DNA of 20,000 nucleotides from an uncultured virus (IMG/VR IMGVR_UViG_3300042901_000675) (IMGVR_UViG_3300042901_000675), one strand, 5' to 3'; shown: positions 1 through 18,115, numbered from the stretch's first letter. Notes: a model not told the origin generated them from the sequence alone. A program made the numbers and translations.

Positions 1-236
1 GTCCAGCCTTTGAGAAATACTTGGATAAGTTCTACGAAGCAGGAGTAGCAGAGTTAGCCGTTACCGAAGATGTAACAGCAAACCCGGATCTAGTGGCTGT
101 TGACATTCATAAAGATACATTACAGTTACTTCATGAAGAGATTGATACAGTTACAGAAAAATCAATTAATAAAAATGTGCTTGCTGATATTATAAACTCA
201 GCATATAATGCCGCAATGTCAAAGGATGAAGATTGA
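1..236 (+). CDS. gp47: T4 gp47-like recombination endonuclease subunit (Mre11/SbcD-like), 3' end only
   Basis: Frame is open from the window edge (PAFEKYLDKFYEAG...), so the TTG at 21 is not the true start. The acidic C-terminal tail overlaps the gp46-like gene by 4 nt, matching T4 47-46 order. Catalytic motifs lie outside the window, so the call rests mainly on synteny. Confidence 0.75.
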   Translation, partial: PAFEKYLDKFYEAGVAELAVTEDVTANPDLVAVDIHKDTLQLLHEEIDTVTEKSINKNVLADIINSAYNAAMSKDED

Positions 237-1954: not shown

Positions 1955-1957
1955 ATA
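1951..1957 (+). promoter_or_regulatory. Putative T4-type (gp55-dependent) late promoter, CTAAATA
   Basis: Resembles T4 late consensus TATAAATA, contains the gp46 stop codon, and lies 5 nt before ATG 1963. The motif recurs before other structural-looking genes. Confidence 0.55.
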
Positions 1958-1962
1958 TTTTT

Positions 1963-2304
1963 ATGAGTGTTAAAAAGCCAGAAATATCTCTCAGTACTGA
2001 CACGATTGCAAAAAATCCGGTCACAACTCCACAGTATACAGCTAAAAGTGTTAATGGATCTGTTATAACTTATAATCGTGGTGATAACGTTACAAGCCAA
2101 GGTAGATTTTATAAGTGTTTAAAAGCAACAACTCTAAGTCCTTTACAAGATAAATCAAATTGGGCTTTTACAGGAATGTCTGAAACATTTAAAGGTTCTG
2201 TACCACCTATAAAACCATTAGAAAATCAATTGTGGATGGCTGATACTGGTGCATTATATATTTGGTATAAAGATATTTCGGGATTTCAATGGGTTCAGAT
2301 TTGA
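1963..2304 (+). CDS. Small hypothetical protein with a CBM5/12-like carbohydrate-binding segment and a fibre-type C-terminal motif
   Basis: YNRGDNVTSQGRFYKC...P....NW resembles the CBM5/12 pattern (YxxGDxVxxxGxxYxC). C-terminal PP..P..NQLW..DTG.LY.W......QWVQ resembles motifs in ORFs 14567 and 17663. Confidence 0.6.
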   Translation: MSVKKPEISLSTDTIAKNPVTTPQYTAKSVNGSVITYNRGDNVTSQGRFYKCLKATTLSPLQDKSNWAFTGMSETFKGSVPPIKPLENQLWMADTGALYIWYKDISGFQWVQI

Positions 2305-2328
2305 CTATTTCAATACAGGAGATATACT
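2301..2328 (+). promoter_or_regulatory. Putative sigma70-type early/middle promoter for the gp45-gp44-gp62-regA operon
   Basis: TTGACT (2301-2306), 16-nt spacer, TATACT (2323-2328), each 5/6 to consensus, at the gene junction upstream of the replication genes. Confidence 0.65.
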
Positions 2329-2334
2329 AGGGCT

Positions 2335-2487
2335 ATGAACGAGGAAAGTTTTCAGAAGTTTAGTAACCGAGGCAAGAATAAGCCATCAGGTTTGGGTAAA
2401 AAGCAACAGAAGAGAAGTAAGCGTGGAGATCGCCACGAACAGAAGCAGCAACTTAACGATATCGTTTATCGTAAAGAACGTGATTAA
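2335..2487 (+). CDS. 50-aa basic hypothetical protein (below the ORF-track cutoff)
   Basis: Hand translation: MNEESFQKFSNRGKNKPSGLGKKQQKRSKRGDRHEQKQQLNDIVYRKERD*. It fills the gap between the promoter and gp45. Confidence 0.7.
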   Translation: MNEESFQKFSNRGKNKPSGLGKKQQKRSKRGDRHEQKQQLNDIVYRKERD

Positions 2488-2506
2488 TTTTTAGAAAGAT
2501 TTATAT

Positions 2507-3178
2507 ATGGAAACTGTGACAAAAATGCGTTTATCAAAAGACACCTATAACATTCTCAAGAATTTTGCAGCAATCAATTCAAATATTCTTATTTCACCAG
2601 GAAACGTCCTCAAGACTATCTCTCCTGGTAAGAATATTTACGTTGAGGCTACAATCTCAGAGGACTTTGATGTTGAAGTTCCTGTTTGGGATTTGAACAA
2701 GTTTTTGGGTGTTGTAAGTATGTTCTCAAACCCCGATTTAGAGTTCCACGATACCCATGTAGTCGTTTCTAACGGCAGATCGAGTGTTACATACTATTAC
2801 TCAGAACCAAGCCTCTTAACGGTTCCTACTAGAGAACTCAAGATGCCAAAGACTACAATTAAGTTTGATCTTGATGAAAAGGATCTAAATGAAATTTTGA
2901 AGGCAGCAAGCATTCTACAAGTAAGTGATCTTCGTATGATTGGTGGAGAAGGTTCTTTCCGTATTATGGTTGATGATTCTAGTCAGAGTACTACCAATAG
3001 TTTTGAGATCGTTTTAGATGAAAACTATACTGGTAAGGATTTTGAAGGTACTTTGAATGTATCTGAGATTAAGTTTATTCCTGGTTCCTACACTGTGGAA
3101 TTGAGTGATACTATTATCTCTAAGTTTACTCATAAGAGTCTGGAACTTGCTTACTACATCGCTATCAAGCGGGGTTAA
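2507..3178 (+). CDS. gp45: T4 gp45-like DNA polymerase sliding clamp
   Basis: MRLSKDTYNILKNFAAINSNILI matches the gp45 N-terminus. WDLNKFL motif, C-terminal YYIA, 223 aa, directly upstream of gp44. The start may be the second Met (2525). Confidence 0.95.
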   Translation: METVTKMRLSKDTYNILKNFAAINSNILISPGNVLKTISPGKNIYVEATISEDFDVEVPVWDLNKFLGVVSMFSNPDLEFHDTHVVVSNGRSSVTYYYSEPSLLTVPTRELKMPKTTIKFDLDEKDLNEILKAASILQVSDLRMIGGEGSFRIMVDDSSQSTTNSFEIVLDENYTGKDFEGTLNVSEIKFIPGSYTVELSDTIISKFTHKSLELAYYIAIKRG

Positions 3179-3180
3179 TT

Positions 3181-4125
3181 GTGTCTGACATTAATAGTCT
3201 GCTCTGGGTTGAAAAATATCGACCCAAGTCATTATCTGATTGTATTCTTCCTATTGATCTTACCACGATTTTTAATGGTATGATCAAGGAAGGTACAATT
3301 CCTAATATGATGCTATATGGCAAGGCGGGTACGGGAAAGACAACCGTAGCCCGTGCTCTTGCCAATGACATCGGTGCCGAAAGTATTATTATTAACTGTT
3401 CTGAAGAGAATGGTATTGATACATTACGCACGAAGATTCGTAATTATGCCTCAACGGTTTCCCTAAGTGGAAATCTAAAGGTTGTAATTTTGGATGAGTT
3501 TGATTATGCCAACGCACAGTCAATTCAGCCTGCTCTTCGTGGAGCCATTGAAGAATTTGCAAAGAACTGCAGATTCATCATGACTTGCAATTACAAGAAT
3601 CGTATCATTGAGCCATTGCACTCTCGTTGCACCGGTATTGATTTTACAGTTCCTAATGCCGAGAAGGCTGCTGTTGCATCTGCAATGATGAAGCGTGTGG
3701 AGTATATTCTTGCACAAGAGAAGATTCCGTATGAGAAAACAGTAATTGTAAACCTTGTTAAGAAGCATTTTCCTGATCTTCGCCGTATTATCAATGAACT
3801 ACAGAGATACGCCTCTGCAGGTAGTATTGATATTGGAGTTCTTGGTCAAGGTAGTAGTGAGTCCTACAAGGAACTTTTAGGATTTATGAAGAATAAGGAT
3901 TTTGTATCGTGTCGTAAGTGGGTGGTACAGAATCTAGATCTTAATACATCTGATTTTTATAAACGTTTATATACTGAACTATATACATCTCTTAAGAATC
4001 CTTCGGTACCACAGGCTATTCTGATTATTGCTGAATACCAATATAAGTCTGCATTTGCAGCAGACCAAGAAATTAACACCATGGCATTGATTGTTCAACT
4101 TATGATGGACTGTGAGTTTAACTGA
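3181..4125 (+). CDS. gp44: T4 gp44-like clamp loader AAA+ ATPase subunit (RFC-like)
   Basis: LWVEKYRP, Walker A GKAGTGKT, Walker B ILDEFD, SRC arginine finger, FPDLRR. GTG start, 314 aa. Confidence 0.97.
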   Translation: MSDINSLLWVEKYRPKSLSDCILPIDLTTIFNGMIKEGTIPNMMLYGKAGTGKTTVARALANDIGAESIIINCSEENGIDTLRTKIRNYASTVSLSGNLKVVILDEFDYANAQSIQPALRGAIEEFAKNCRFIMTCNYKNRIIEPLHSRCTGIDFTVPNAEKAAVASAMMKRVEYILAQEKIPYEKTVIVNLVKKHFPDLRRIINELQRYASAGSIDIGVLGQGSSESYKELLGFMKNKDFVSCRKWVVQNLDLNTSDFYKRLYTELYTSLKNPSVPQAILIIAEYQYKSAFAADQEINTMALIVQLMMDCEFN

Positions 4126-4505
4126 TGCAACTAAAAGACTTTTTATCTAGTATAAACCATGACAAGAAACCTCTTCTCGATACAGATGAGGGCGCGGTCA
4201 AGGCATATACACCGTTTGTAGTCAATCGGTGTTTATCTTATTTTGCAGATACCTTATTTCATGCCAACGAGATGAATTGTTCTCCTTGGTTAGACAACAA
4301 GAGTCAATTTGATTTCTATCGGCTTGCTGTTCGTAAAAAGAAGCGGTTTTCTCCTTGGTTACGTAAAGATACCGAAGAGAATGTAACGCTAATAAAGCAG
4401 GCATATGGTTACACAGAATCCAAGGCTAGAGAAGTACTAAATATACTGAGTACCGAGGATTTGCAAGAAATACGCAAAGCCCTTGATACTGGTGGTGTGA
4501 GGTAA
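4125..4505 (+). CDS. gp62: T4 gp62-like clamp loader small subunit
   Basis: LKDFLSSIN, YTPFVVNRCLSYFADT, ANEMN, RKKKRFSPW, YGY...KA.E.L..L, terminal GG. TGATG overlap with gp44. Confidence 0.93.
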   Translation: MQLKDFLSSINHDKKPLLDTDEGAVKAYTPFVVNRCLSYFADTLFHANEMNCSPWLDNKSQFDFYRLAVRKKKRFSPWLRKDTEENVTLIKQAYGYTESKAREVLNILSTEDLQEIRKALDTGGVR

Positions 4506-4522
4506 TTTAGTAAGGATTTGTT

Positions 4523-4948
4523 ATGTCTGATCTATCTGATAAAACATTTAAAAATATTGGCGTTCATATTACTCTTTTGGATGAAGAAGATTTCATGGTT
4601 GTTCGTGAAACTCTTTCTCGTATTGGTGTATCTCCAAAAGGAAAGAATGTCTTATACCAATCATGTCATCTAATTCATAAAGATGACGTTTATATCATTG
4701 CACACTTCAAAGAACTATTTGCACTAGATGATCTTCCATCTAATGTATCAGATGAAGATTTGCAAAGACGTAATGCTATCGTTAAATTACTCGAAGAATG
4801 GGAACTTCTTGAAGTAGTTGATAAAGATAAACTTAAAGATTGTATGCCAATCAATGGTATTAAAATTATTAAGCACACAGAAAAAGATAATTGGGATTTG
4901 ATTCCTAAATTTAATACCGGATCACTACGTAAATTTTTTAATTCATAA
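4523..4948 (+). CDS. regA: RegA translational repressor
   Basis: DFMVVRETLSRIGV, LYQSCHLIHK, YIIAHFKELFALD, RRNAIVKLLEEWELL, W.LIPKF. Follows gp62 as in T4, with an AGGA Shine-Dalgarno. Confidence 0.96.
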   Translation: MSDLSDKTFKNIGVHITLLDEEDFMVVRETLSRIGVSPKGKNVLYQSCHLIHKDDVYIIAHFKELFALDDLPSNVSDEDLQRRNAIVKLLEEWELLEVVDKDKLKDCMPINGIKIIKHTEKDNWDLIPKFNTGSLRKFFNS

Positions 4949-4956
4949 GGATGACT

Positions 4957-6174
4957 ATGTATAATTTGACACTATCTATGATCGTTAAGGACGAAGCACC
5001 AAATATCGAAAGATGCCTAGCTTCATGCGCACCGTTTATTAATTATTATGTTATTTGTGATACGGGTTCAACCGATAACACAAAGGAAATAATTAAGAAG
5101 TTCTTTGATGAAAAGGGAATTCCTGGTGAAATTCTAGATCATGAATGGTCTGATTTCGGAACCAACCGATCCAAGGCATTGGAAGCGTGCATGGGTAAAA
5201 CCAAGTGGGTTATGATGATTGATGCGGATGATTTTCTTGTTGGAGAACTACCAGTAGCATCCTTCGATGATACATTAGATGGTTATGTTGTACAAATAAA
5301 AAGAGGTGAGTTTCAGTGGCTTCGTGCACAAGTTTTCAATGTTGCTAGAAAGAAGTGGTGGTATGAAGAACCGTTGCATGAATATGCAATGTGTGAACAG
5401 CCCATGAATGTTAAAAAGCTTGAAGGTAATTATGGATGGGAAGTCCGTACCGAAGGTTGTCGTTCACGTGCCGTTGCTAATGATATTGAAAAGTATACTA
5501 AAGATTATCATATTCTTAAGTCGTACCTAGATAAAGATCCAAATCAACCTCGTAAACAATTTTATGCCGCCCAATCGGCATTTGATGCCAGAATGTACGA
5601 TGTTGCAGAAGTAGAATATATGGCACGAATTAAACTTGAATCCTGGCACGAAGAAGTATTCTTCTCTTGGATGCGAGTAGGTATGTGTCGTGAATTCCAA
5701 GGAAAACCTGTACATGAAATTGCAGATGCCTTTATGATGGCATTTGAGACTGCTCCTAATCGAGTAGAACCACTATATCATCTTTCTTGCATTTATAGAA
5801 AGTATAATAGACCTAGAAATGCATTCTTGGTAGCTTCATTGGGTCTTAGTATTCCTCTTCCAGAAAATGACATTCTTTTTGTTGACAAGGCAAATTATGC
5901 ATGGGGAATTTTTGATGAGGTTGCTACAACTGCATATTACACTGGTAGACCTGAAATTGGTATTGCAACATGTGAAAAGTTGTTAAAGGAACCACATCTG
6001 CCACAGGAACACAGAGAAAGAATTGCCAATAATTATAAAATTTATGGCCAAGGTATGCAAAAGATGCAAGAAGCTCTTGCTAACCAAAATAAAGAATGGG
6101 CAGAAAAGGTAACCAAAGCAACTAATAAAACAACTTTGGTAATGGATCCCAAAGCCGCTACGGTCAAACTCTGA
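4957..6174 (+). CDS. Family 2 (GT-A fold) glycosyltransferase with C-terminal TPR-like repeats
   Basis: LSMIVKDEAPNIERCL, DTGSTDNT, W.DFG..R..AL, DxD motif IDADD, LHE, then helical TPR-like units (PRKQFYAAQS, PNRVEPLYHLSCIY). AAGGA at 4947-4951 favours ATG 4957 over 4951. Confidence 0.9.
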   Translation: MYNLTLSMIVKDEAPNIERCLASCAPFINYYVICDTGSTDNTKEIIKKFFDEKGIPGEILDHEWSDFGTNRSKALEACMGKTKWVMMIDADDFLVGELPVASFDDTLDGYVVQIKRGEFQWLRAQVFNVARKKWWYEEPLHEYAMCEQPMNVKKLEGNYGWEVRTEGCRSRAVANDIEKYTKDYHILKSYLDKDPNQPRKQFYAAQSAFDARMYDVAEVEYMARIKLESWHEEVFFSWMRVGMCREFQGKPVHEIADAFMMAFETAPNRVEPLYHLSCIYRKYNRPRNAFLVASLGLSIPLPENDILFVDKANYAWGIFDEVATTAYYTGRPEIGIATCEKLLKEPHLPQEHRERIANNYKIYGQGMQKMQEALANQNKEWAEKVTKATNKTTLVMDPKAATVKL

Positions 6175-6189
6175 TAATCTTCAAAGCTT

Positions 6190-6196
6190 CTAAATA
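6190..6196 (+). promoter_or_regulatory. Putative late promoter, CTAAATA
   Basis: Intergenic copy of the recurring motif at the head of the fibre gene block. Confidence 0.55.
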
Positions 6197-6207
6197 TAGG
6201 AGAATCT

Positions 6208-6233
6208 ATAATAGCCTTTAATAGGGCTATTAT
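6208..6233 (+). terminator. Stem-loop: possible intrinsic terminator or 5'-UTR regulatory hairpin
   Basis: ATAATAGCCTT-TAAT-AGGGCTATTAT forms an 11-bp stem with one G-U pair, followed by TCTTT. Confidence 0.45.
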
Positions 6234-6252
6234 TCTTTGGAGAATCCTAATA

Positions 6253-6651
6253 ATGTCAGATAACTTTAATCCAGTTGTTGTCAAAGGTGATACGTTAACT
6301 TGGGTGATGAATCTTGCTAATGCAGCGGGGAATACCTTTGATTTGGGTGGATCTACATTATCCATGCAAGTTAGAAAAAGTTATCATCCAAGTGGTCTTT
6401 TAGTCTCATATGAGCTTGGAATACCAGCTGGATCTGTAGTTGTTCCTGTAGATGGAATTACTGGAGGATTGGCAGCAAGTGCTACAGGGGGAACAATATA
6501 TGTTACTATTGGCTCCGAATACACTAAAAGTTTTTCAGAATATTCTTCATCATTTTATGATATGCAACTTCAATACCCAAATAATGGTGGTGTAGTCACC
6601 CTATTAAGAGGAAGAATTGAAACTCTTCCTGATGTAACTGAGAGTACTTAA
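6253..6651 (+). CDS. Small beta-sandwich virion protein, probable fibre adaptor/collar (BppU-N/LtfC-like)
   Basis: Pattern KGDTL...DL.G....MQVRK...G.I...I....T...YD.......G....LL.G.I...PDVT recalls small phage proteins found just before tail fibres. GGAG Shine-Dalgarno, and 1 nt from the next gene. Confidence 0.55.
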
Positions 6652-6652
6652 T

Positions 6653-9600
6653 ATGGCAAGCCCAAGCAAAACAGTTCAAGTAACCGTATATCCAACTCCC
6701 TATGCTGTTGAAGGTGTTCCTGGAGTACCAGGATCAACTGGACCAGCTGGTCCACAAGGTAATACAGGTCAAGGTTTCTTTTTATTAAATTTTACAGGTT
6801 CTATTACTGTAAATTATGGTACTAGTAGTACATTAAATGTTAACTTAGCTTCGAATGCTAATGCAATATCTGTTGGACACACAATAAAAATAAGTTTTAC
6901 AGATATTGGAAATTATATTTATGGAACAGTTACGGCATATTCTGGTAATCAAATAACATTTATTCAAGTTAGCGGTACGGCTGTTAATGGTAATACGTCT
7001 AATGTTGGTACAATTATTTACGATACTATTCCTGCAGATGATGGTATTGCTACACAGATGGCTCTCACTACAACCAATACTGAAGATGTACAATATCTTG
7101 TATTTGCTGGTGGGTGTGGTAACCAAGCATTAAAAATTGATGGAGGACTCTCTCCTCTTAGATATACTCCTAACCCATCACAATTATCTCTTAATTCAGT
7201 ATTAGTAGGTAGTGGAAGTTTTGAAGTAGAACTAAGCGGAGCGGAGTTGTCTGCAACTAGTTTCTTTTACTTTAGAGCACAAGATGGAATATTCTTTCAA
7301 GATCGTAGTCTTGTTCAATTGGGTGATGTAGAATCTAATAATTATGGAACGGTTTTAGAAGTATTGGGATCAACTAGTTCTAATATGGTTAAGATCCGAA
7401 ACCAAAATCCACTTTCTCCTGATACCAATCTTGTGATTAATAGAAATAGTGTTTTAGCTAGAACCCATGCTATAGAAGTTAATAAAAGTGATGGAAAAAT
7501 TCTAAAGCTTATTTACAACGATGTTACTGATGGTGCTATTACAAATGCTACTTTAGACCTTTCATCATCTGGAAATATGATTCTAACACCAAGTGGTGGT
7601 TTAGTATATATTAATGGTAATATTGGTGTTAGTGGGAGTTATCAGGGAACTGTTGTACAAAGTATAAATGGCATTACTGGAACGATAGATTTTCTTGCTG
7701 GTCAAAATGTAACATTGGGGATTAGTGGAAATAGTGTAACTATCGCATCTTCTGGTGGTATTACTAGTGGAGTCTCATCACTTAATGGTCTTAGTGGTGG
7801 TATTAATTTAGTAGCAGGTTTAAATGTTGGTATAACTTTATCTGGTAATAATATTGAAATTTCTTCTATTGGGGGAGTTGGTTCAACTGGTCCTACTGGT
7901 CCACAAGGAAATACTGGTGCTACTGGTCCACAAGGAAATACTGGTGCCACTGGTGCAGGTTCCACGGCTCCTGGTCCTACTGGTCCTCAAGGAAATACTG
8001 GAAATCAGGGAAATACTGGTGCAACTGGTGCAACATCTACTGTTCCCGGCCCAACAGGTCCGCAAGGAAATACTGGGAATCAAGGAAATACGGGCGCAAC
8101 TGGTAGAACAGGTAATACAGGTGCAACTGGTGCAGATTCAACCGTTCCTGGTCCTAGAGGCAATACTGGTTCAACGGGTTCCACTGGTGCTACTGGTAAT
8201 GCTGGTCCAACTGGTAGTACGGGGCTAGCTGGTGATATTTACAAATCAACAGGTACAGCGGGTATAACCTTGGCATCTATTGGTGCTGGTGTTACATTAA
8301 CAGTGCCATCTGGATTAGCCTATAGTAAAGTTCAAACTGTTTTAGTTGCAGCTGGAGCATCTCAATATTTTATCGCAACAGTTAATAGTTATAGTGGTGT
8401 AACATTATCTCTTGTTGTTAATTCTGTTACTGGTACCGCGTATTCAAATTCATGGGATGTAAATCTTAATGGTGCTGTTGGACAAAAGGGCGATCAAGGA
8501 ATTCAAGGTCCTACTGGTCTACAAGGAACTACTGGTAATACAGGTTCTACAGGAAATACTGGTAATACTGGTGCTACTGGTATTCAAGGTACTACAGGTA
8601 ATACTGGTGCAACCGGTATTCAGGGGAATACTGGTGCTACTGGTAATGTAACGCTTTCTGGTCTTTGTTTCACACAATCTGGTAGCGGTGCAGTAGCTCG
8701 TACAATTGACAGTAAATTGAAAGATGTATTTTCTGTTAAGGACTTTGGTGCAGTTGGTGATGGTATTACAGATGATAGAGCCGCTATTCAAACAGCATTG
8801 GGTGCTATGTTTGGATTGAGCGGTATCTCTTCGGGAACAATATATTTTCCATATGGAAGATATAAAATAAATGCAGCACTTGGTTATGAACCTGTTAATA
8901 AAGATATTAAACTTTTAGGAGATAATGCCACTATCCAATGGGGTTCTGCTACTGGTGCTGGAATGTTGACATTAAACGGAAATACCAACTATATTCATAT
9001 AGAAGGTATAATTTTTGATGCAAATAATACAAATTCTAGAATTTTTCAATCTTATTCTGCTGCTCAATCAGCTGCAAGAATTTTTATTAATAATTGTCAG
9101 TTTCTTAATACTTTTGCTACAACTGAAACACCAGCGAGTTTAGGATGTTATATTGAGGGTGGGTTTGAAAGTGTTACATTAACAAATTCATTATTTAAAA
9201 ATATACTTAGATCTTCGGCTGGAATAACTGGTGGTGGTTGTCAAGCCTTTGTTGTAACAAACCGAGGCGCAGAAACCCAATATGCTGAATGGGTTAATGT
9301 AACAAATAATGTATTTGAAAATATTTTAACAGGAACTTCTGGTGGAAATGTTGAGAGAAACTCTGATGCCGATGGAGTGGTATTATTTGGTGGAAGAACA
9401 TATGGTGCAAATACTATTCCTGCAAGCAGTATTGTAGCAAATAATAAATTCACAAATTGCCAAGGTCGTTCAATAAAAATTCAAGGAGATGAATCCACAA
9501 TAACTGGCAATCAAATCTATTGTAATGTTAGATCGATTGCTAGAGGATCACCGCACATAAATCCTCAAATTGCTGTTGGCAATGTTAGCAATAATACATT

Positions 9601-11053
9601 CCACTTTGATGTTACATCTGATGGAAAAAGTCCATTTACACACGATGGTTTGCCAATAGTTGCTGATACCAGTTTTCCTTATTATAGTTCTACTGCAATC
9701 GGATTTTATACTGATATGAGTATGGGTAGACCAAAGTATTATACAGTTAGAAATAATACTATTATTAATAATGTTCCTGCATCTATTGGAGTATATAGAG
9801 GAGGTGTTATATCTGTAGCTGAGAATGATGGTACCCAAGCTTCTGGACTCCCTGCACTAGCAATAGAACCATTATTTGTAAATGCAGATGGAAATTCTAT
9901 TATTGGAAAAGGAGAATCTCAAAGATTAGCAATGTTATGTACCCGAGGGCTACAAACTGACGGTGCTACGTCTTATGCTCCCCCATCTCAAACTGCATTA
10001 TATGCAACAATAACAAATAATTATGTTGCCAAAATATCAGCACCCTTTACAGGCGGATTAACTTTAACACCAATATATGGAAGTATTGTATCTACAGGTG
10101 GTGTATTCTTAAGTAGCACTTCTGATTATGTATCTGGTACAGCTTATAATAAAATATTTCTCAGTAACAATAGTCATGGTTCATCATATTTTGTTCCACT
10201 GATGGATAGACAATCCCAAAGTAGTTATCAAAATTATGCATTAGATTTAGTGTCTATAAACAATAGAAAAGTTAATGATATTGCTAAAGGTCTTACAGGA
10301 GAATTAAATCAATTTGGAACAATTGGTGTCTGTGCGGCAAACATAACTACTAACAATCTTACCGCAACAAATATAACAGTAGGATCAGGTGGAATATCTG
10401 GTATTAATCTTGTTAATAGTGTTAGAGGTATAACAGGTAATGTTGGATTTACTGGTTCTTCCGGATTAGCAATTAGTAGTACAGGAAATACTCTTACATT
10501 TACAAATAGTGGTGTATTGAGTATCAATTCTGCTACTGGTGCAATTACAAATGTTGCTAAATTAGATGTTGCTCAAAATTTTACTGCAACACAGAATTTT
10601 ACCACCGGCTTCACAATTGTACCAACAGGTCCAGCTACGTTTGGTGGTTTAACTGCAGATTTTAATAAAAATACAATATATCAACCAACATTGCAGTGGT
10701 ATAATGAACCATATGCAGCAGTATCAATTGATAGTGGTACACTTACTTTAGATTTATCCAAAGCTCAAGTATTTACGGTGACATTAACTTCCAGTATTAC
10801 AAATTTTGTAGTAACAAATGTTCCGACAACAGTAGCTAACCGTACTATTGGATTTACTTTAATACTGCAGATGAATACACCAACTTCTACAATTACATGG
10901 GGATCCAAAGTAAGATGGGCTGGTGGAGTTGCTCCTACACTAACTTCAGGTTCTGCTGGAGTACAAAAAGTTGATGTATTCTCATTTGTAACAGTAGATA
11001 ATGGAGTTTCTTGGCTGGGCTTTATTGGTGGACAAAATTTTGCTTCAGTCTAA
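6653..11053 (+). CDS. Large tail fibre/spike protein: Gly-X-Thr collagen segments, pectin-lyase-like beta-helix, C-terminal fibre beta-domain
   Basis: GXY runs at about 7880-8232 and 8471-8646. [33 protein letters not shown]...IYFPYGRY is the typical pectate_lyase_3/tailspike entry motif, followed by Asn-rich beta-helix rungs. VxSxNGxTG fibre repeats. C-terminal LTLDLS...ITW...VRWAGG.AP...VDVFSF. Confidence 0.85.
7880..8232 (+). repeat. Collagen-coding 9n-nt repeats ([12 protein letters not shown] triplets)
   Basis: Includes a near-perfect tandem 27-mer GGTCCACAAGGAAATACTGGTGCYACT at 7898-7951 and three GAxST(A/V)PGP blocks. Confidence 0.9.
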
Positions 11054-11074
11054 ATTTAAATAACATGCACTTGA

Positions 11075-11082
11075 TATAAATA
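11075..11082 (+). promoter_or_regulatory. T4-type late promoter, TATAAATA
   Basis: Exact T4 late consensus, intergenic, 9 nt before ATG 11092. Confidence 0.75.
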
Positions 11083-11091
11083 TATTACCAC

Positions 11092-14000
11092 ATGGAAGAC
11101 ATTATTAATGTAATAGTTTACGGAACTCCTTATGGAGTACCCGGAGCCACCGGACCACAAGGACCTGTTGGACCGGGTAGTACCTTAACTGGACCTCCCG
11201 GACCCACTGGTCCACAGGGTATACAGGGTATTCAAGGTAATGCTGGAGCAAAAGGAAATCCAGGTGAGCAAGGAGATCCTGGTTCACAGGGGCTTCAAGG
11301 AAATACTGGTGCTACTGGTGCCACTGGTAATCGGGGAAATACTGGTGCTACTGGTAATACTGGTGCTACCGGGAACCGAGGAAGTACTGGTACTACTGGT
11401 GCAGGATATCTATCATACAGTGGGACAGAAGTATTTATAGGTGATTTTTCTGTTGGTGATCCTATTATTTTTACCATAACGGCAGTACCTTTGCCAGCAT
11501 ATTCTATTGGTCAAACTTTAATTATAACTGATAATCTTGACCCCACCAACAATTATCTTATTGGAACTATTACCAATTGGGTTCCGGGAACTAGCATTGT
11601 TACTTTAACTCTGACAGAAGTTGTTGGATCTGGAACAGTTATAGATTGGACTCTAAATCTTTTTGGTCAACAGGGTATTCAAGGTAATACTGGTAATGCT
11701 GGTGCAACTGGACTTAGAGGACCTACTGGTAATACAGGAACAGCAGGAGATCTGTTTAGTACTACGTCCGGTACATCAATTTACCTTTCAGATAAATTAC
11801 CAGGGTCTGTTGTATTTTTATCAGTTCCAACGGGGCTAGCATATACTCCCGCACAAACTGTATTAGCGGCTGTAAGTATTACACAATATTTTAATGCACA
11901 AGTTGTAAGTTATTCCCCACCAGGAATAACATTGAGTATGACTGGTATATGTGGAGGTGCAACCGGATCAAATTGGAAAGTAAATCTTGACGGCGCACCT
12001 GGTCAACAAGGTGATCAAGGAATTCAAGGAATTCAAGGTCCTACTGGATCGCAGGGAAATACGGGAAACACCGGTGCCACTGGTGCTACTGGAAATCAAG
12101 GAAACACCGGTGCTACTGGTGCTAATTCAACTGTTCCCGGTCCAACTGGTCCTCAAGGAAATACTGGTAATAATGGAACAAATGGTAATACTGGTAATAC
12201 TGGTGCTACTGGCAGTCAGGGAAATACTGGTGCTACTGGTTCACCAGGAAATACTGGTGCTACTGGTGCAGATGGTATCAGTGGTCCGTATGTTATTACT
12301 TTTAATGGACTCACAGGGGCTGTAACTGGAGTAACTACCGGAATTGCAAACAACTTTCTTGCACTGCAATCATTTAGTTCCGGTATTAGTGCAGCCGGAG
12401 GTACACTATCAGGAATATTTAATATTCCTATTCCTGGTATTACTTTTACTAGTAGAAGTATTACTGGTACGATAGCTTCTTTAAATATTAATGCTGGTAA
12501 TAATATTAATATACATTCTGGAGCAGCTCAAGCAAAACATACAATAAAACCAACTTTACTAATTCAAAATGATGGTCAAAATATTCATGGCAATGTTCCA
12601 TTAGATGTACGTGGTACAACTTCACAAAATTCAAATTTAACAAATTGGACCACCGTTTCTGGTACAGTTTTATCTTCTATTGGTATATCTGGTGGATTTA
12701 GTGGACCTGCATCATCATTTAGTGGGCTGCTTACAGCAAATGCTGGTATAAGTTCTTCTGGTGCAACCTTTAGCGGATTAATTACAGCAAATTCTGGTAT
12801 AAATTCTTCTGGTGCAACATTCTCTGGAAATATAAGTGCACCAAATATTATTAATTATATTAATGGTCTCACGGGTGCAGTAACTTTAGCTGCTGGAAAT
12901 AATATGGGAATTACTTTATCAGGTAATTCTATAATATTCTCATCTACTGGAGCATGTGGCTCATGTGGTCCAATTATTCTTGATGATATTGTTTATATTA
13001 CGGGTGTGTGTAATGCAAGTGGAATTTTTATCAATACAACTAATGATACATTAACTCTTTATGGTAGTAACATTACAAAAGTTGGATCTGGTGTAAGTAA
13101 AACAGTACCCGGAATAGAGATAACAAATCAAACTAATTCTATCAATGTGTATGCTTCTAATATATCTTTTGATGGATCTGTAAATGATATTGAAGGAAAC
13201 CTTGTAAACCGATTCAATGGTCTTACCGGTAATGTAGTAGGTGTTGGATCAGTTAATCAAGGATCTGGAATCCTGTTATCAGGTTCTACTGGTAATGTAA
13301 CTATTACGAATACTGGTGTTCGTCAAATAATTGGAACATCATCACAAATTAATGTAAGTCCACTTGGAGGAACAGGAAATTTAACATTAAGTTTGTCATC
13401 TAATCTTACTGATATTAATAGTATTACATCAACAGATACTACTAAAAGTATAGGTTTATCACACGTTGGTAGTTTTGTTACCTCAAATGTTAATTTAAAA
13501 GATGCTGTCTTAAGTATTGGTGGTGCTAGTCAAGGTGTTAGTACAATTGCATATGGAACTCTCACAGTTACTGGTGGTAATAATCTTAATGTAAGTGGAA
13601 CTTATCTTGGTACTGTTGTAAGAAGTTTTAATGGAAAAACTGGAGCACTTCAAGGTGTATGCACGGCTGTTGCTGGAACCGCTATTTCAGTATCAGGTGC
13701 AACAGGTAATGTTACTATTACAAATCAAGGTGTTCATGGTTTATTTACAACTGGTTTTGGTGGACTGACAGGGGATATTACTTTACTTGCCGGTTCAAAT
13801 ATTACAATCGGTTCATGTGTTGCAGCAAACACTATTACAATTAGTGGTAGTAGTAGTGGAAGTAGTGGTGTTACAGATGGTTCTGCAATAATTTCTAGAT
13901 TATATCCAAATCTTCCAGCAAACGGATTGTGTGCTGGTGATATAATTTCATACAATGGATCTGATAGATGGATTCCAACACCACGCACATTCTTGTCTAC

Positions 14001-14541
14001 ACCTAGTATATGGCAGACAAGAAAAACATCCTCTAATGGATACCCGTCTTCAAGTGTTGTTATACCTGGAAACGGTACATTACAGATTCAAGGTGCAACT
14101 GCAGTTGTTGGGGAATTAATTCAATTAAGTTTAAGTGGTGATGATGTTGGAGGTACTACTCTAGGTGTTGGTACTTGGTGGTTAAATTATTCTCTGTATG
14201 GAAGTCTAGCCTCTCTAGATCCTGGTCTGTTTAAAGGATCCTATAGTGGCTTGACTATATTAAATTCACCGGCATTTTATAGTGCAATAAGTTTAGGTGG
14301 TGTAGATCGTGATGTTGCTGGTTTCGCAATGTTAATACGTGGAACTACATATAATGCCTATGATGGTCGTGGTGGTCCATTTGGTAGTACATTATGTAGT
14401 ACAGATCCAAATCAAATGCCTCTAGGAGATGGTAGTGTATGTGATGGTGAAGGTGTAGATTTATATCCAATTACTTGTAGTATACGCACTGGTGGAGGAT
14501 TTACATATAATGGTGTTTACTTTGAGTGTATTCCAGTCTAA
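11092..14541 (+). CDS. Collagen-like tail fibre protein, paralogous in its N-terminal part to ORF 6653
   Basis: Three GXY runs (about 11134-11403, 11664-11748, 11992-12285) separated by beta-domains, multiple V..FNG.TG repeats, Gly/Ser/Thr-rich, with a Cys-containing C-terminus. Confidence 0.82.
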   Translation: MEDIINVIVYGTPYGVPGATGPQGPVGPGSTLTGPPGPTGPQGIQGIQGNAGAKGNPGEQGDPGSQGLQGNTGATGATGNRGNTGATGNTGATGNRGSTGTTGAGYLSYSGTEVFIGDFSVGDPIIFTITAVPLPAYSIGQTLIITDNLDPTNNYLIGTITNWVPGTSIVTLTLTEVVGSGTVIDWTLNLFGQQGIQGNTGNAGATGLRGPTGNTGTAGDLFSTTSGTSIYLSDKLPGSVVFLSVPTGLAYTPAQTVLAAVSITQYFNAQVVSYSPPGITLSMTGICGGATGSNWKVNLDGAPGQQGDQGIQGIQGPTGSQGNTGNTGATGATGNQGNTGATGANSTVPGPTGPQGNTGNNGTNGNTGNTGATGSQGNTGATGSPGNTGATGADGISGPYVITFNGLTGAVTGVTTGIANNFLALQSFSSGISAAGGTLSGIFNIPIPGITFTSRSITGTIASLNINAGNNINIHSGAAQAKHTIKPTLLIQNDGQNIHGNVPLDVRGTTSQNSNLTNWTTVSGTVLSSIGISGGFSGPASSFSGLLTANAGISSSGATFSGLITANSGINSSGATFSGNISAPNIINYINGLTGAVTLAAGNNMGITLSGNSIIFSSTGACGSCGPIILDDIVYITGVCNASGIFINTTNDTLTLYGSNITKVGSGVSKTVPGIEITNQTNSINVYASNISFDGSVNDIEGNLVNRFNGLTGNVVGVGSVNQGSGILLSGSTGNVTITNTGVRQIIGTSSQINVSPLGGTGNLTLSLSSNLTDINSITSTDTTKSIGLSHVGSFVTSNVNLKDAVLSIGGASQGVSTIAYGTLTVTGGNNLNVSGTYLGTVVRSFNGKTGALQGVCTAVAGTAISVSGATGNVTITNQGVHGLFTTGFGGLTGDITLLAGSNITIGSCVAANTITISGSSSGSSGVTDGSAIISRLYPNLPANGLCAGDIISYNGSDRWIPTPRTFLSTPSIWQTRKTSSNGYPSSSVVIPGNGTLQIQGATAVVGELIQLSLSGDDVGGTTLGVGTWWLNYSLYGSLASLDPGLFKGSYSGLTILNSPAFYSAISLGGVDRDVAGFAMLIRGTTYNAYDGRGGPFGSTLCSTDPNQMPLGDGSVCDGEGVDLYPITCSIRTGGGFTYNGVYFECIPV

Positions 14542-14553
14542 TGAAATCGGACC

Positions 14554-14560
14554 CTAAATA
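14554..14560 (+). promoter_or_regulatory. Putative late promoter, CTAAATA
   Basis: Intergenic copy of the motif, 6 nt before ATG 14567. Confidence 0.6.
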
Positions 14561-14566
14561 ATATAA

Positions 14567-16420
14567 ATGTTCTTCGGAAAGAACAAAACATCTTTAAAAC
14601 TGGCAAAACAGCACTCAGAACTGCTGCAAGGCTGTGAATACCACATTGTCGAATATCTGACAAATCCAAAAGTTATAAGAGTTGGTTCTGGTATATCACA
14701 GTTATATCTAAGAAATTCTGATGGTGAAGAATATTTAATCGAAGGTAATTCTTCTAAAATTAAAGAATTATTCATTCCAGTACAAACCTTTGAAGGACTT
14801 CAAGGAACTTCTTTCAAGGTTAAAAGACCTATTGGTTCGTTATTACAAAATCAAGTACTGAAAGAAATTTCTTCTTGTCCGTATGATGAAAAAATGCAAC
14901 TTGGTCATGGTATCAGTGAGCATTATTTTATTCAAAAAGATACAAACAAAGTTATTAAATTTTATGGTAATTCTCATCAGATTAAAAATCTGTTTGAAGA
15001 AATTATTGTACCAGTAAAATCACCAGAAGTAAAGCCAGTTGCACCAAAGACCAAAATTGAAATTATAGAAAGAACTATAATTAAAGAATCTACACCTGTT
15101 ATGGGTGTTCAAGGATTCAAAGGTGATGAGGGTATTCAAGGTAAGCAAGGAATTCAAGGTCTTCGTGGAGATCGTGGTATTCAAGGAGAAGTTGGTCCAC
15201 AAGGTGAAATCGGTCCTCAAGGAGAAGTTGGTCCGCAAGGTCCAAAAGGTGATAATGGAGATATGGGTGCACGAGGAGCACAGGGACTACAAGGCAAGCA
15301 AGGAATTCAAGGAGACAAGGGTGATAAAGGCGATCAAGGCGATCAAGGATTGGTTGGTCCACAAGGTATTCCGGGCACACAAGGTGAGCAAGGTGGAATT
15401 GGTCCTGAAGGTCCGGTTGGACCTCAAGGCTCCATTGGTCTGCAAGGTCTTCGTGGTGAAAAGGGAGAAAAAGGTGATCGAGGACCTGTGGGCATTCCGG
15501 GTTCTAATGGTGCAAAGGGCGAACGAGGCGAAGATGGGATCGTAGGTCCTCAAGGTCCTGCGGGAGAATCTCCAGTACTTGAAGCAGAATTTCCTCTTGT
15601 ATTAGATAATGGAGTATTGTCATTTCATTCAGAACACGTTACAAATGTTCTGAATACATTTAAAAATGATGATATTCAAAAAGCAATAGATCGTATTGGT
15701 GCGATGACAACACCTGCTGGTGGCGGTGGTGTTGATATAAGTTTGAATGGTGATAAAATTATTCGTAATCCCAATACGATTAATTTTATTGGTGATAATA
15801 TTACAATCACCAGAAGAAGAAAAAATGTAGATATTAGTATTGCTGGTGGTTGTGGTGGAAGTAGTACGAGTGGGGTGTCATCAATTATTGCTGGAACTGG
15901 AATTTCAATAAGTCCTAGTGGTGGTACTGGTAATGTAACTATAAATTCAATTGTATCTGGTGTTACATATTATTACCAATCTTCAGCCCCCACAGATCCT
16001 GGTATTACTATGGGATATCGTTGGATGTCTTCCGATACTGGTATTGAATATGTGTATGTTAATGATGGCAATAGTCCACAGTGGGTTCAGCCAACTAATA
16101 CAAGCAGCAATTCTACTCCAGTTTCAATTTTAGGAACAGTTGGTGTCACGGGAGCAACTTATACAGCATCTGTGGTTGATTATTATATTGGTGTTAGTTA
16201 TGCAGGACCAGTTACAGTAACACTTCCAGTTGCTCCAGAAACTGGAAGAGAAATTGTTGTTAAAGATGAATCTGGTAATGCGGGTAATGGAGTCAATCGT
16301 CAGATTACGATTGTCGGAGCCACTGCAGCACATACGATAGATAATCAAAGTTCAGCAATAATAAATTTAGATAATGCCGGGTTGCATTTCATTTATAGAA
16401 ATGGATGGAGAATAATATGA
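14567..16420 (+). CDS. Collagen triple-helix protein (charged GXY type) with duplicated N-terminal domain and fibre-like C-terminal domain
   Basis: About 51 uninterrupted GXY triplets (15104-15566: GIQ, GPQ, GEK, GDR). C-terminal YYIGV....VTVTLP..P..GREIVVKDESG...ITI...ID recalls T4 gp34-type fibre modules. Confidence 0.8.
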   Translation: MFFGKNKTSLKLAKQHSELLQGCEYHIVEYLTNPKVIRVGSGISQLYLRNSDGEEYLIEGNSSKIKELFIPVQTFEGLQGTSFKVKRPIGSLLQNQVLKEISSCPYDEKMQLGHGISEHYFIQKDTNKVIKFYGNSHQIKNLFEEIIVPVKSPEVKPVAPKTKIEIIERTIIKESTPVMGVQGFKGDEGIQGKQGIQGLRGDRGIQGEVGPQGEIGPQGEVGPQGPKGDNGDMGARGAQGLQGKQGIQGDKGDKGDQGDQGLVGPQGIPGTQGEQGGIGPEGPVGPQGSIGLQGLRGEKGEKGDRGPVGIPGSNGAKGERGEDGIVGPQGPAGESPVLEAEFPLVLDNGVLSFHSEHVTNVLNTFKNDDIQKAIDRIGAMTTPAGGGGVDISLNGDKIIRNPNTINFIGDNITITRRRKNVDISIAGGCGGSSTSGVSSIIAGTGISISPSGGTGNVTINSIVSGVTYYYQSSAPTDPGITMGYRWMSSDTGIEYVYVNDGNSPQWVQPTNTSSNSTPVSILGTVGVTGATYTASVVDYYIGVSYAGPVTVTLPVAPETGREIVVKDESGNAGNGVNRQITIVGATAAHTIDNQSSAIINLDNAGLHFIYRNGWRII

Positions 16421-17652
16421 GTTACTTATTTAATGATACTGTTGGGTTCAAAGCAGATGCAGTGGATGCATTTAATCGTCTTAAAGTTGCTAACCCATTC
16501 ACAATCTTTGACAGTCAAAATAGATATCAACCCAATGACAAATGGGATTCCTTTGGTGTCACAGGTGGTACATATTCTTATGCAATTACTGAAAGCGCAC
16601 TAAACTTAATTGTTGGAACTACATTGGGTTCAAAATCTTCAAGAGAGACTAAAAGAGTATTTCCATACCAGCCTGGTAAATCTCTTTTGGTTCTAAACAC
16701 ATTTGCATTTAATCAACCAAAAGAAGGACTAAGACAAAGAATTGGATACTTCGGGCTTACTGGTGGTGCAACTTCTGGTGTTCCATATAATGGTGTATAT
16801 CTTCAACAAAGTGGTCTGACATTAAGTATCGTAATGTCATCAGCATCATTAAATACCACAACTACAGTAAATCAAGCAGACTGGAACGGAGATAAGTTTA
16901 ATGGAACTGGTGCTTCTGGACGTAACTTAGATGTTTCAAAAGCAAATATTTTATGGATGGATTTTGAATGGCTTGGTGTAGGTGATGTTCGTACAGGTTT
17001 CTTTGTTGATGGTAAACCTGTAATAGCACACACATTCCATAACGATAATATAAACACAACGACTTATATGACCACAGCATGTCTTCCAATTCGTTATGAA
17101 CTTGAGAATTTAACAGGTCAAACAGGAAGCAGTCAAGTAAAACAAATTTGTTCTTCTGTTATTTCAGATGGTGGATATGAAGGTTTTAGCAGACGGCATA
17201 ACGTAACTCATAGTGGGTATTTAGCACATACATTGACTACTCCAGGAGTATTGTATCCATTAATTTCTTTGAGACTTAATTCTAGTAGACTCGATTCTAT
17301 TATTATTCCATCAAATGTTTCTGCAGCATTAGAAGAAACTGGAGCAAATAAACCAAACACGGTGCAATATAGAATTATACTAAATCCTACATTAACAGGA
17401 AATACTTGGACAACACATTATAGTGGAAATGTTGATTATAATATTACTGCTACAGGAGTTACTGGTGGAACTGATATTGTTGGTGGGTACATTACCAGTG
17501 ATGGAGCATTTACTATTGGTGAGGTAAATAGTTTTAATTTTCAATTAGGTAGAACTCAAGCAGGAGTCAGTGATGTTATCTGTCTAGTTTTTATTCCCAT
17601 TAATGCCAATTCCAATGTTTTCTCAGATTTTTCATGGTATGAAATCATCTAA
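16417..17652 (+). CDS. Phage hypothetical protein, beta-rich, probably virion-associated
   Basis: Long ORF with DAFNRLKVANPFTIFDS, YQPGKS and WMDFEWLGVG motifs. ATG 16417 overlaps the upstream TGA (ATGA) and has GGAG 6 nt upstream, so it is preferred over 16405. Confidence 0.7.
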   Translation: MSYLFNDTVGFKADAVDAFNRLKVANPFTIFDSQNRYQPNDKWDSFGVTGGTYSYAITESALNLIVGTTLGSKSSRETKRVFPYQPGKSLLVLNTFAFNQPKEGLRQRIGYFGLTGGATSGVPYNGVYLQQSGLTLSIVMSSASLNTTTTVNQADWNGDKFNGTGASGRNLDVSKANILWMDFEWLGVGDVRTGFFVDGKPVIAHTFHNDNINTTTYMTTACLPIRYELENLTGQTGSSQVKQICSSVISDGGYEGFSRRHNVTHSGYLAHTLTTPGVLYPLISLRLNSSRLDSIIIPSNVSAALEETGANKPNTVQYRIILNPTLTGNTWTTHYSGNVDYNITATGVTGGTDIVGGYITSDGAFTIGEVNSFNFQLGRTQAGVSDVICLVFIPINANSNVFSDFSWYEII

Positions 17653-17662: not shown

Positions 17663-18112
17663 ATGGCACTAGATTTCCCTACATCACCAGCACTGAATGA
17701 AATTTACACGTATGGTGGTCGTTCTTGGCAATGGAACGGCACTGCGTGGGATGTTTATAGTACTGTAAGTGGTAGCGTTGTAACACGACTCAATGGTTTA
17801 ACCGGCGGTGTAACACTTGCTGCTGGGTCAAATATTACTCTAACTCCAGTTGGTAATACGATTACCATTGAATCTTCTGGTGGTGGTGGAGGTGGTGGAA
17901 CCTATTTCAGTTTCACGGAAGGTACTACCGTTGGTGCAGGACCAACTGCTGGAGATAGATGGTTTGATACAAACACTGGAAAATTATTCACAGCAATAAC
18001 AGATGGTGCTTCTCGTATTTGGGTTGAATTTGGTAATGCTGGTCAAGGTAATACGGGTGCCACAGGTGGGGTAGATGCTGCTTTTGTAATAGCAATGGCA
18101 ACGGTGTTATAA
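17663..18112 (+). CDS. Small modular virion/fibre-associated protein
   Basis: N-terminal FPTSP...YTYGGRSWQWNGTAW, one NGLTGGVTLAAGSNIT repeat, P..GDRWFDTNTGKLF motif, a collagen remnant ([12 protein letters not shown]) and a hydrophobic tail FVIAMATVL. Confidence 0.7.
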   Translation: MALDFPTSPALNEIYTYGGRSWQWNGTAWDVYSTVSGSVVTRLNGLTGGVTLAAGSNITLTPVGNTITIESSGGGGGGGTYFSFTEGTTVGAGPTAGDRWFDTNTGKLFTAITDGASRIWVEFGNAGQGNTGATGGVDAAFVIAMATVL

Positions 18113-18115
18113 ATA
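18108..18115 (+). promoter_or_regulatory. T4-type late promoter, TATAAATA
   Basis: Exact consensus overlapping the TAA of ORF 17663, followed by a GAGGA Shine-Dalgarno and ATG 18129. Confidence 0.75.

Follow-up and report, generated by a model that had tools for sequence, protein, structure and literature searches.

In Clostridioides difficile, the glycosyltransferase SgtA (358 residues) is composed of a GT-A domain (residues 1-260) and four tetratricopeptide repeats (TPRs; residues 262-358), and its gene lies immediately 5′ of bclA3 (PMC7157674). In vitro, SgtA transfers beta-O-linked N-acetylglucosamine (GlcNAc) from UDP-GlcNAc onto the Thr residues of GPT collagen peptides, with Mn2+ preferred to Mg2+ (PMC7157674). 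In the Bacillus cereus group, the Thr-rich collagen repeats of the surface fibre protein BclA carry short O-glycans, which differ from species to species and include deoxy, amino, and methylated sugars (PMC12357932; PMC8968730). I analysed a stretch of 20,000 nucleotides (nt) from an uncultured virus (IMG/VR IMGVR_UViG_3300042901_000675; the whole stretch is called the window), which belongs to a viral contig of 33,235 bases from a T4-like myovirus. It was found that the window encodes a GT2 glycosyltransferase with a TPR domain, followed by two tail fibre genes with Thr-rich collagen repeats (fibre 1 and fibre 2). Since the family of this enzyme adjoins Thr-rich collagen-like genes in many bacteria and in other phages, the enzyme most likely glycosylates the phage's own tail fibres, and it is probably an SgtA-like O-glycosyltransferase for these collagens. 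A preliminary description of the locus had proposed such a collagen-directed phage enzyme; the fold, the sequence profile, the co-occurrence, and the SgtA-like architecture support this interpretation, with the activity itself being a prediction.

The enzyme matches Pfam Glycos_transf_2 (PF00535) at residues 10-96 with 45.4 bits against a cut-off of 23.3, and its PHROG match (phrog_13126) has an E-value of 7.7e-25. The catalytic domain spans about residues 6-165 and the helical/TPR domain residues 170-391. Among 56 homologues, D37, T38, G39, S40, D42, D91, A92, H143, R201, R271, and E273 are invariant, and all of them are present in the phage enzyme; D91 and A92 belong to a DADD motif (residues 91-94) whose D93 is nearly invariant (90% or more). 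A Pfam scan with the enzyme as a single sequence gave no TPR match. With a profile of the 56 sequences, positions 174-297 matched consensus TPR proteins repeatedly (E = 2.5e-38) and the TPR domain of OGT (1e-7). An AlphaFold2 model made from the 56-row alignment had a predicted local distance difference test (pLDDT) score of 93.6 and was used, while a single-sequence model (pLDDT 44.7) was discarded. In the model, a GT-A domain is followed by ten TPR-like helices at residues 170-391. Thus, the preliminary description of a GT2 enzyme with TPR-like repeats agrees with the Pfam match, the profile matches, and the model. The enzyme has no membrane segment.

Which characterised enzymes are the nearest? 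In a Foldseek search, SunS (7msn; E = 7.7e-15 over 393 columns) and ThuS (7msk; 9e-15) came at the top, with TarS (8e-8) next; the wall-teichoic-acid enzymes were found at 1e-7 or worse. VIA-align superposed both domains on SunS (7msp; Z 22.5, 268 residues aligned, root-mean-square deviation 2.9) and on ThuS (7msk; Z 21.3), while the best match limited to the GT-A domain had a Z of 17.3 and TPR proteins matched the helical domain with a Z of 15-17. The profile of the 56 homologues searched against the PDB gave 9.1e-24 for GmaR, 4.6e-20 for SunS, and 2.5e-14 for ThuS, compared with about 1e-4 for chondroitin synthase and TarS. By sequence, the catalytic domain has its closest solved relative in GmaR (PDB 22ao; profile positions 6-192; E = 7.7e-9 with the single sequence). 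GmaR is a flagellin O-GlcNAc transferase that glycosylates Ser/Thr residues and doubles as an anti-repressor. The kinship with SunS/ThuS and GmaR is thus well above that with the wall-polymer GT2 enzymes TarS, RmlT, and TarP. The nearest characterised relatives, SunS/ThuS and GmaR, all act on polypeptides. The phage enzyme is very probably a polypeptide glycosyltransferase as well. It had also been claimed that the enzyme is unlike the GT-B-fold DNA glucosyltransferases of T4; the GT-A + TPR fold bears this out, and the enzyme groups with SunS/ThuS and GmaR, apart from those DNA glucosyltransferases.

The family is large, with 16,066 representatives at an E-value of 1e-3 or lower and 2,059 at 1e-30 or lower. 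The GT2-TPR module of about 360 residues is often fused with GT25, GT4, GT10, GT9, GT7, or methyltransferases. One viral locus (L054, 9995-12900) encodes the module fused with a GT25 domain (968 residues in total) near a DUF5899 'minor capsid protein P2' gene. In another, distant viral locus (L055, 9060-11116), the GT2-TPR gene is preceded by a PLOD-GT-like gene. The glycosyltransferases of animal collagen belong to the GT25 and PLOD-GT families.

The Thr residues at the Y position were counted in runs of at least five Gly-X-Y triplets. In fibre 1, Thr occupies Y in 40 of 69 triplets (58%; 14 GNT, 10 GAT, 6 GST, 5 GPT, and 2 GTT), with a binomial p of 4e-19 against the 12.5% Thr of the whole protein. 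In fibre 2, the count is 31 of 71 (44%; 13 GNT, 12 GAT, and 4 GPT; p = 2e-10). The triplets had been said to carry mostly Thr at Y, which holds for fibre 1, while Thr has only a plurality in fibre 2. The Thr-rich blocks of the two fibres are the most likely substrates, and I consider it probable that they are the ones used. A third collagen-like protein encoded downstream has Thr at Y in none of its 52 triplets and has Gln/Lys/Arg there instead; it is probably not a substrate of the enzyme. The virion gene set thus holds two chemically different collagen types, a Thr type and a Gln/Lys/Arg type. Both fibres match many PHROG tail-fibre families, and their assignment as collagens comes from repeat scores (the Pfam Collagen gathering cut-off is 27.2 bits), the triple helix itself being predicted. 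In prokaryotic collagens, Thr occupies 31.6% of the Y positions over all bacteria and 48.3% in Gram-positives (PMC8968730). Since Thr at Y is this common, the Thr richness alone is not unusual and proves nothing.

Is the pairing of the enzyme with Thr-rich collagen common in bacteria? One genome per species was scanned, which gave at least 599 relatives, and the best 80 loci were taken by similarity to the query alone, with the neighbours ignored. A collagen was called Thr-rich when it had at least 10 triplets with Thr at 40% or more of the Y positions, and flanks of 8 kb were inspected. A collagen-like ORF (open reading frame) of any type was found inside the flanks of 43 of the 80 loci. At 24 of the 80 loci, Thr-rich collagen is found no more than 300 bp from the enzyme gene; the number rises to 33 at a distance of up to 3 kb and to 39 at up to 8 kb. 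When only the 54 loci flanked by 3 kb or more on each side are counted, the numbers are 18, 22, and 28. The collagen gene is upstream of the enzyme gene in 36 of the 39. The loci with collagen within 3 kb represent eight phyla (Actinomycetota, Pseudomonadota, Myxococcota, Bdellovibrionota, Bacillota, Bacteroidota, Acidobacteriota, and Chlamydiota), and they are spread over most clades of the enzyme tree (96 rows; L109 was left out because it was too short).

As a background, five whole genomes with such loci (2.0-11.2 Mb) were searched and hold only about two to six collagen ORFs each. In all five, the ORF richest in Collagen-model matches is inside the enzyme locus of about 17 kb. It is directly upstream of the enzyme gene in four, and the gap is about 3 kb in the Bradyrhizobium genome. 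Since there are so few collagen ORFs per genome, the pairing is far above chance; by my own arithmetic from these five genomes, adjacency by chance would be about 1% per genome. When Bacillota were sampled evenly, 148 of 401 genomes had a match at 1e-10 or lower, and many of these matches cover only the GT domain within longer proteins. Among 20 Bacillota loci picked where the match spanned both domains, a collagen ORF stands beside the enzyme gene in 12, with Thr dominant at Y (GPT or GAT) in 11 and Gln in one. The loci with Thr collagen have the arrangement published for SgtA and BclA3. Two of the Bacillota enzymes (356 and 366 residues) align with residues 6-335 and 6-318 of the phage enzyme (E = 1e-13 and 3e-15; 23-24% identity). 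Collagens are also present in a Chlamydiota group that is sister to an environmental clade treated below, and some of its loci have 300-430 Gly-X-Thr triplets. On a Cupriavidus pauculus plasmid (L142, NZ_CP033971.1 246898-259968), the enzyme gene is divergent from a 'tail fiber protein' gene encoding 44 Gly-X-Y triplets with Thr at Y in 33, and there is no phage context within 13 kb.

In phages, 9 of 50,697 records match the enzyme, and in five the match extends over the greater part of it. Tunturiibacter phage Tunturi_5 encodes the enzyme (gp35, annotated as 'beta-1,4-glycosyltransferase') 3.7 kb from an annotated tail fibre (gp29), which is the sole collagen ORF in 308,711 bp and has Thr at Y in 66 of its 110 triplets. 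This proximity would arise by chance with a probability of about 2%, by my own estimate. In the huge phage LR756502, one of two collagen ORFs is 6 kb from the enzyme gene. In the enzyme tree, a single clade unites the T4-like viral enzymes, Tunturi_5 is on a separate branch, and the huge phages make up a third group. From 54 viral loci, 49 were analysed as a set of relatives after the removal of five with incomplete sequence. Collagen ORFs lie 3′ of the enzyme gene in 35 of the 39 close relatives (at least 67% identity), and the other four have at most 3.5 kb of downstream sequence.

A second viral set consists of 80 loci anchored on the structural gene beside the third collagen gene of the window. 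Related phages keep the Gln/Lys/Arg collagen next to this structural gene whether or not they have the enzyme. The enzyme is encoded in 13 of the 80 loci, and 12 of these 13 have a Thr-rich collagen. Among the 67 loci without the enzyme, four show a Thr-rich collagen; in one of them the enzyme gene is just past the edge of the locus, two have short flanks, and one is a marginal case.

It was further found that sugar genes accompany the enzyme. The contig of this phage has, 5 kb upstream of the enzyme gene and on the same strand, a gene cluster that occupies about 10 kb between uvsY and gp47 (L280 = G000:C1:20612-33235, minus strand). It encodes an epimerase/dehydratase, a GT6, a GT1-like protein, HtrL_YibB, a TylF-like O-methyltransferase, a nucleotidyltransferase-like protein, a HAD phosphatase, a GT11, and a weak GT25 match. 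At this place (G001:C1, about 84,800-92,800), a different set is found in a relative with a 98%-identical enzyme, namely GDP-mannose 4,6-dehydratase, DegT, an FkbM methyltransferase, and GT11. Since the gene content differs between phages with 98%-identical GT2-TPR enzymes, the uvsY-gp47 cluster behaves as a hypervariable glycan cassette. In distant T4-like relatives (38-43% identity), the enzyme gene is the last gene of a cluster for sugar synthesis and transfer, which includes GDP-mannose 4,6-dehydratase, epimerases, a DegT aminotransferase, C- and O-methyltransferases, GT8, and GT11. Two of these clusters directly abut collagen genes, and four have no collagen within 10 kb. Glycosyltransferases in the hypervariable regions of pelagimyophages have been read as modifiers of the O-chain on the host surface (PMC7029224). 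The link of the sugar genes to a protein-directed initiating enzyme hints at, but is no proof of, a reading other than host O-chain modification.

The following mechanism may be proposed. The enzyme would be a cytoplasmic, metal-dependent GT-A glycosyltransferase working like C. difficile SgtA, with a C-terminal TPR domain that would bind the polypeptide. In the infected cell, it would move a sugar from a host nucleotide-sugar onto the Thr hydroxyls at the Y positions of the Gly-X-Thr repeats of the fibres, before or during fibre trimerisation. UDP-GlcNAc is the best guess for the donor by analogy. The first sugar might then be extended by the transferases and the methyltransferase encoded 5-15 kb upstream, and the outcome would be fibres coated with glycan. 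The fold and domain architecture, the kinship to protein and peptide glycosyltransferases, the intact motifs, and the recurrent pairing with Thr collagen are observed. The substrate, the modified residue, the sugar, the extension by the upstream cluster, and any effect on stability, adsorption, or shielding are what I infer from them.

Several points weigh against an SgtA-like enzyme dedicated to collagen fibres. The activity on fibres is a prediction for the window protein and for its phage homologues alike, and the suggested kinship with SgtA draws on the published description of that enzyme rather than on its own sequence. Thr at Y is common in prokaryotic collagens whether they are glycosylated or not (PMC8968730), and a recombinant E. 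coli prophage collagen carried no glycosylation (PMC3368898). The enzyme family is not exclusive to collagens, and about half of its members have no nearby collagen. The preliminary description held that occurrence of the family independently of Gly-X-Thr collagens would speak against the proposal. The pairing is recurrent, yet Thr-rich collagen is absent within 8 kb in 41 of the 80 bacterial loci and in 26 of the 54 with full flanks, and a Collagen-model search of the whole genome of the huge phage LR745206, which has the enzyme, gave no match. In one environmental Chlamydiota clade (rows within L060-L138), 16 of 17 loci lack a nearby collagen gene. Enterobacterial plasmid copies of the enzyme gene lie directly 3′ of a gene for a 990-residue autotransporter that has no collagen repeats. 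One of these copies (L140, NZ_CP056187.1 45304-58362) is 33% identical to the phage enzyme over 87% of the length, and matches identical to it occur on other Enterobacter, Citrobacter, and E. coli plasmids. The L140-type locus on conjugative plasmids is possibly an autotransporter glycosylation pair.

Similar points come from the phages. As nine records in 50,697 match the enzyme, phage collagen fibres generally do without it. In the huge phage LR756501, about 44 kb separate the enzyme from the nearest collagen. Four loci of a T4-like sub-clade (L047, L048, L051, and L052) have no collagen inside 10 kb, and the nearest collagen is 9.7-10.8 kb away in the contig of L048 and in L049/L050. In the anchored set, one locus with the enzyme (L205) has no Thr-rich collagen within 10 kb on either side. 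On the tree of the anchor gene, the presence of the enzyme is a single change, which leaves one independent contrast (sign test p = 1). Thus, the co-occurrence in T4-like phages is one evolutionary event and not independent evidence. The co-occurrence that the preliminary description asked to test across T4-like genomes was found in bacteria (eight phyla) and in separate phage lineages, while the T4-like phages provide only this single contrast. The enzyme gene abuts regA, and a late-promoter motif of its own was not found. Lastly, the upstream sugar cluster resembles O-antigen clusters, and similar genes have been read as host-surface modifiers (PMC7029224).

Could the enzyme and the upstream cluster instead modify the host surface, that is, lipopolysaccharide (LPS), capsule, or a surface protein, and thereby block superinfection or change the receptor? 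The sugar and transferase genes favour this, both those in the phage's own contig (epimerase/dehydratase, GT6, GT11, and others) and those in its close relative (GDP-mannose 4,6-dehydratase, DegT, FkbM methyltransferase, and GT11), as do the position of the enzyme gene at the end of the sugar cluster in distant relatives and the O-chain reading of pelagimyophage glycosyltransferases (PMC7029224). The PHROG label of the enzyme, 'beta-1,4-glycosyltransferase, moron/AMG', points the same way, although the PHROG and JGI names are automatic labels. However, the enzyme lacks a membrane segment and has a TPR domain, its nearest solved relatives act on peptides and proteins, and the recurrent neighbour of the family is a gene for a collagen-like or other surface protein rather than a polysaccharide export gene. 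Modification of the host surface is therefore unlikely in my estimate. The target may also be a protein but lie outside the collagen triplets, either in other Ser/Thr-rich parts of the fibres or in capsid or tail-tube proteins. The non-collagen parts of both fibres contain 11-12% Thr and 11-12% Ser, SgtA accepts Ser too (PMC7157674), the C-terminal domain of BclA is also glycosylated (PMC12357932), and some family members adjoin non-collagen surface proteins; glycosylation of mycobacteriophage capsid and tail-tube proteins is on record (PMC12619734, citing Freeman et al. 2023). What the neighbours share over eight phyla and the phage lineages, however, is the Gly-X-Thr repeat, while their flanking domains differ, and in this phage group the enzyme travels with the Thr-type collagen and not with the Gln/Lys/Arg type. 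A target outside the triplets thus seems rather improbable.

Two other functions were considered and set aside. The best fold matches are SunS and ThuS and there is a weak NCBIfam SunS match, so that an S-glycosyltransferase maturing a small secreted peptide of the glycocin type might be imagined. This match (TIGR04195) reaches 33.4 bits against a cut-off of 350 and covers only the N-terminal residues 6-97, the identity to SunS is 16-19%, the sole small neighbour (132 residues) has no Cys, and no transporter or thiol-disulfide genes are among the Pfam and PHROG matches of the window; a glycocin function is very improbable. T4-like phages are known for the glucosylation of their DNA. Phage glycosyltransferases are often annotated as DNA-modifying (PMC12619734), but the fold here is GT-A + TPR and not GT-B, the structural matches listed are GT-A enzymes and TPR proteins with no DNA glycosyltransferase among them, and the family is mostly bacterial and chromosomal and located beside surface-protein genes. 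Glycosylation of the phage DNA by this enzyme is accordingly hardly credible.

The features of the locus are collected in Table 1. The source phage is a marine T4-like phage. The left third of the window (233-4948) encodes gp46, a small ORF, the gp45 clamp, the gp44/gp62 clamp loader, and RegA. The closest catalogued phages by gp44 identity are Pelagibacter phage Mosig (54%), Methylophilales phage Melnitz (52%), and cyanomyoviruses (50%), and megablast of window positions 4000-15000 against phage records gave no DNA-level match. The small ORF between gp46 and gp45 (1963-2304, 113 residues) has a weak match to the carbohydrate-binding family CBM_5_12 (E = 3.9e-4), which is below the cut-off. 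The enzyme ORF directly follows regA. The preliminary description had placed its start at 4957, which is the second Met, since the ORF opens at 4951; this start is nevertheless plausible, with AAGGA 6 nt upstream and many homologues of 405 residues. It had also placed the enzyme gene just 5′ of two fibre genes with one small gene between, and the ORFs agree with this; fibre 1 starts 479 nt past the enzyme stop codon. The fragment 7880-8232, which it had singled out for co-expression, falls within the main collagen block of fibre 1.

Table 1. Features of the enzyme-fibre locus, with positions counted from the first nucleotide of the window.
Feature	Position (nt)	Strand	Length or residues (aa)	Matches and remarks
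GT2 (GT-A) + TPR glycosyltransferase	4951..6174	+	407; 405 if start at 4957	PF00535; phrog_13126
Small conserved gene	6253..6651	+	132	No Cys; phrog_1084 (unknown function), 4.6e-15
Fibre 1	6653..11053	+	1466	Pfam Collagen 72.3 bits; PF12708 47.9 bits; PHROG tail-fibre families
Fibre 1, Thr-rich collagen block			21-41	
Fibre 1, Thr-rich collagen block (main)	7871-8239		407-529	
Fibre 1, Thr-rich collagen block	8471-8650		607-666	
Fibre 1, pectate-lyase-like beta-helix	8729-9262		693-870	PF12708 47.9 bits
Fibre 1, PHROG match in tail-fibre-like C-terminus			1359-1463	phrog_9017
Fibre 2	11092..14541	+	1149	Pfam Collagen 99.8 bits; PHROG tail-fibre families
Fibre 2, collagen block	11134-11406		15-105	
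Fibre 2, collagen block	11665-11754		192-221	
Fibre 2, collagen block	11992-12291		301-400	
Third collagen-like protein	14567..16420	+	617	Pfam Collagen 88.2 bits
Structural gene beside third collagen gene	16405-17652			Anchor of the second viral locus set

The 132-residue gene has no Pfam or NCBIfam match, and an atlas comparison gave virus-only hypothetical clusters and one weak lead to BppU_N. It is retained between the glycosyltransferase gene and the fibre gene in relatives, and its product is possibly a small structural or adaptor protein. The pectate-lyase-like domain predicted within fibre 1 points to a module that binds or depolymerises polysaccharides. The T4 late-promoter-like motif TATAAATA is present at 11075-11082 (before fibre 2) and at 18108-18115 (before an ORF at 18129), 10-14 nt before the starts. 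It occurs three times in the window against 2.65 expected, so that the count is not above chance. As a late-promoter marker it was dropped; its count is at chance level, none lies 5′ of the enzyme gene, and it says nothing about the timing of the enzyme.

A search of open-access full text and bioRxiv, with subscription journals outside its range, gave no paper that describes glycosylated phage collagen fibres or a cross-phylum enzyme-collagen pairing. To my knowledge, glycosylation of phage virions has been documented only recently, and only for mycobacteriophage capsid and tail-tube proteins. A statement in a 2022 review holds that prokaryotic collagens are in most cases not glycosylated (PMC8968730). 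If the proposal is true, an abundant marine group of T4-like phages sugar-coats its host-recognition fibres, and sugar genes filed as host-surface 'auxiliary metabolic genes' may need another reading. The single case of C. difficile SgtA and BclA3 would widen to a module across many bacterial phyla, and short enzyme-substrate pairs would become available for glycosylated, hydroxyproline-free collagen materials. A broader picture may be sketched, although as a whole I hold it to be tentative and rather doubtful. Thr-rich prokaryotic collagens might be glycoproteins as a rule and not as an exception. The GT2-TPR enzyme and the Gly-X-Thr collagen might be an old mobile two-gene module, present in at least eight bacterial phyla and captured by phages at least two to three times. 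In abundant marine T4-like phages, the variable 'LPS-like' sugar clusters of the hypervariable region might use the module as their entry point and might build strain-specific glycans on the tail fibres and not on the host surface. Such an O-antigen-like variable fibre coat might affect adsorption, stability, or the escape from recognition by hosts and grazers.

How does the locus compare with the known systems? The Mimivirus lysyl hydroxylase/glucosyltransferase L230 is also a viral enzyme that glycosylates a viral collagen (PMC8968730), but it belongs to a different enzyme type, acts on hydroxylysine and not on Thr, and comes from a eukaryotic virus. Mycobacteriophages likewise encode glycosyltransferases that modify their own structural proteins (PMC12619734), although those enzymes act on the C-termini of capsid and tail-tube subunits and not on collagen repeats. 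As for BclA and its glycans, the phage contigs also encode deoxy- and amino-sugar genes and methyltransferase genes, while BclA is on the spore surface and not on a virion. GmaR of Listeria monocytogenes resembles the phage enzyme in the sequence of the catalytic domain, the solved GmaR chain (PDB 22ao) being the GT domain only; its substrate is flagellin, and no flagellar genes are present at the phage locus. SunS/ThuS (PDB 7MSN, 7MSP, 7MSK) share the GT-A domain and a helical, TPR-like domain that recognises a polypeptide, and they are the best matches over both domains. However, the identity to SunS is 16-19%, the score of 33.4 bits is far from the TIGR04195 equivalog cut-off of 350, and SunS modifies Cys of small bacteriocin peptides, while the window has no such peptide or export genes. 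SgtA, compared by its published description, differs from the phage enzyme in several respects: the phage enzyme is viral, its presumed substrates are tail fibres of 1149-1466 residues with GNT/GAT and not GPT triplets, a small gene stands between the enzyme and fibre genes, a large sugar cluster lies upstream, and the identity to the Bacillota relatives is only 23-24%. On the other hand, both enzymes have an N-terminal GT-A domain and C-terminal TPRs, are similar in size (358 versus 405-407 residues) and cytoplasmic, and are encoded just 5′ of a collagen-like gene with Thr at Y. The analogy drawn in the preliminary description, in which SgtA is encoded beside bclA3 and is required for glycosylation of the Thr-rich BclA3, thus matches in architecture and gene order what has been published (PMC7157674), and the 356-366-residue Bacillota enzymes beside GPT collagens, which serve as surrogates of SgtA, align with the phage enzyme over both domains.

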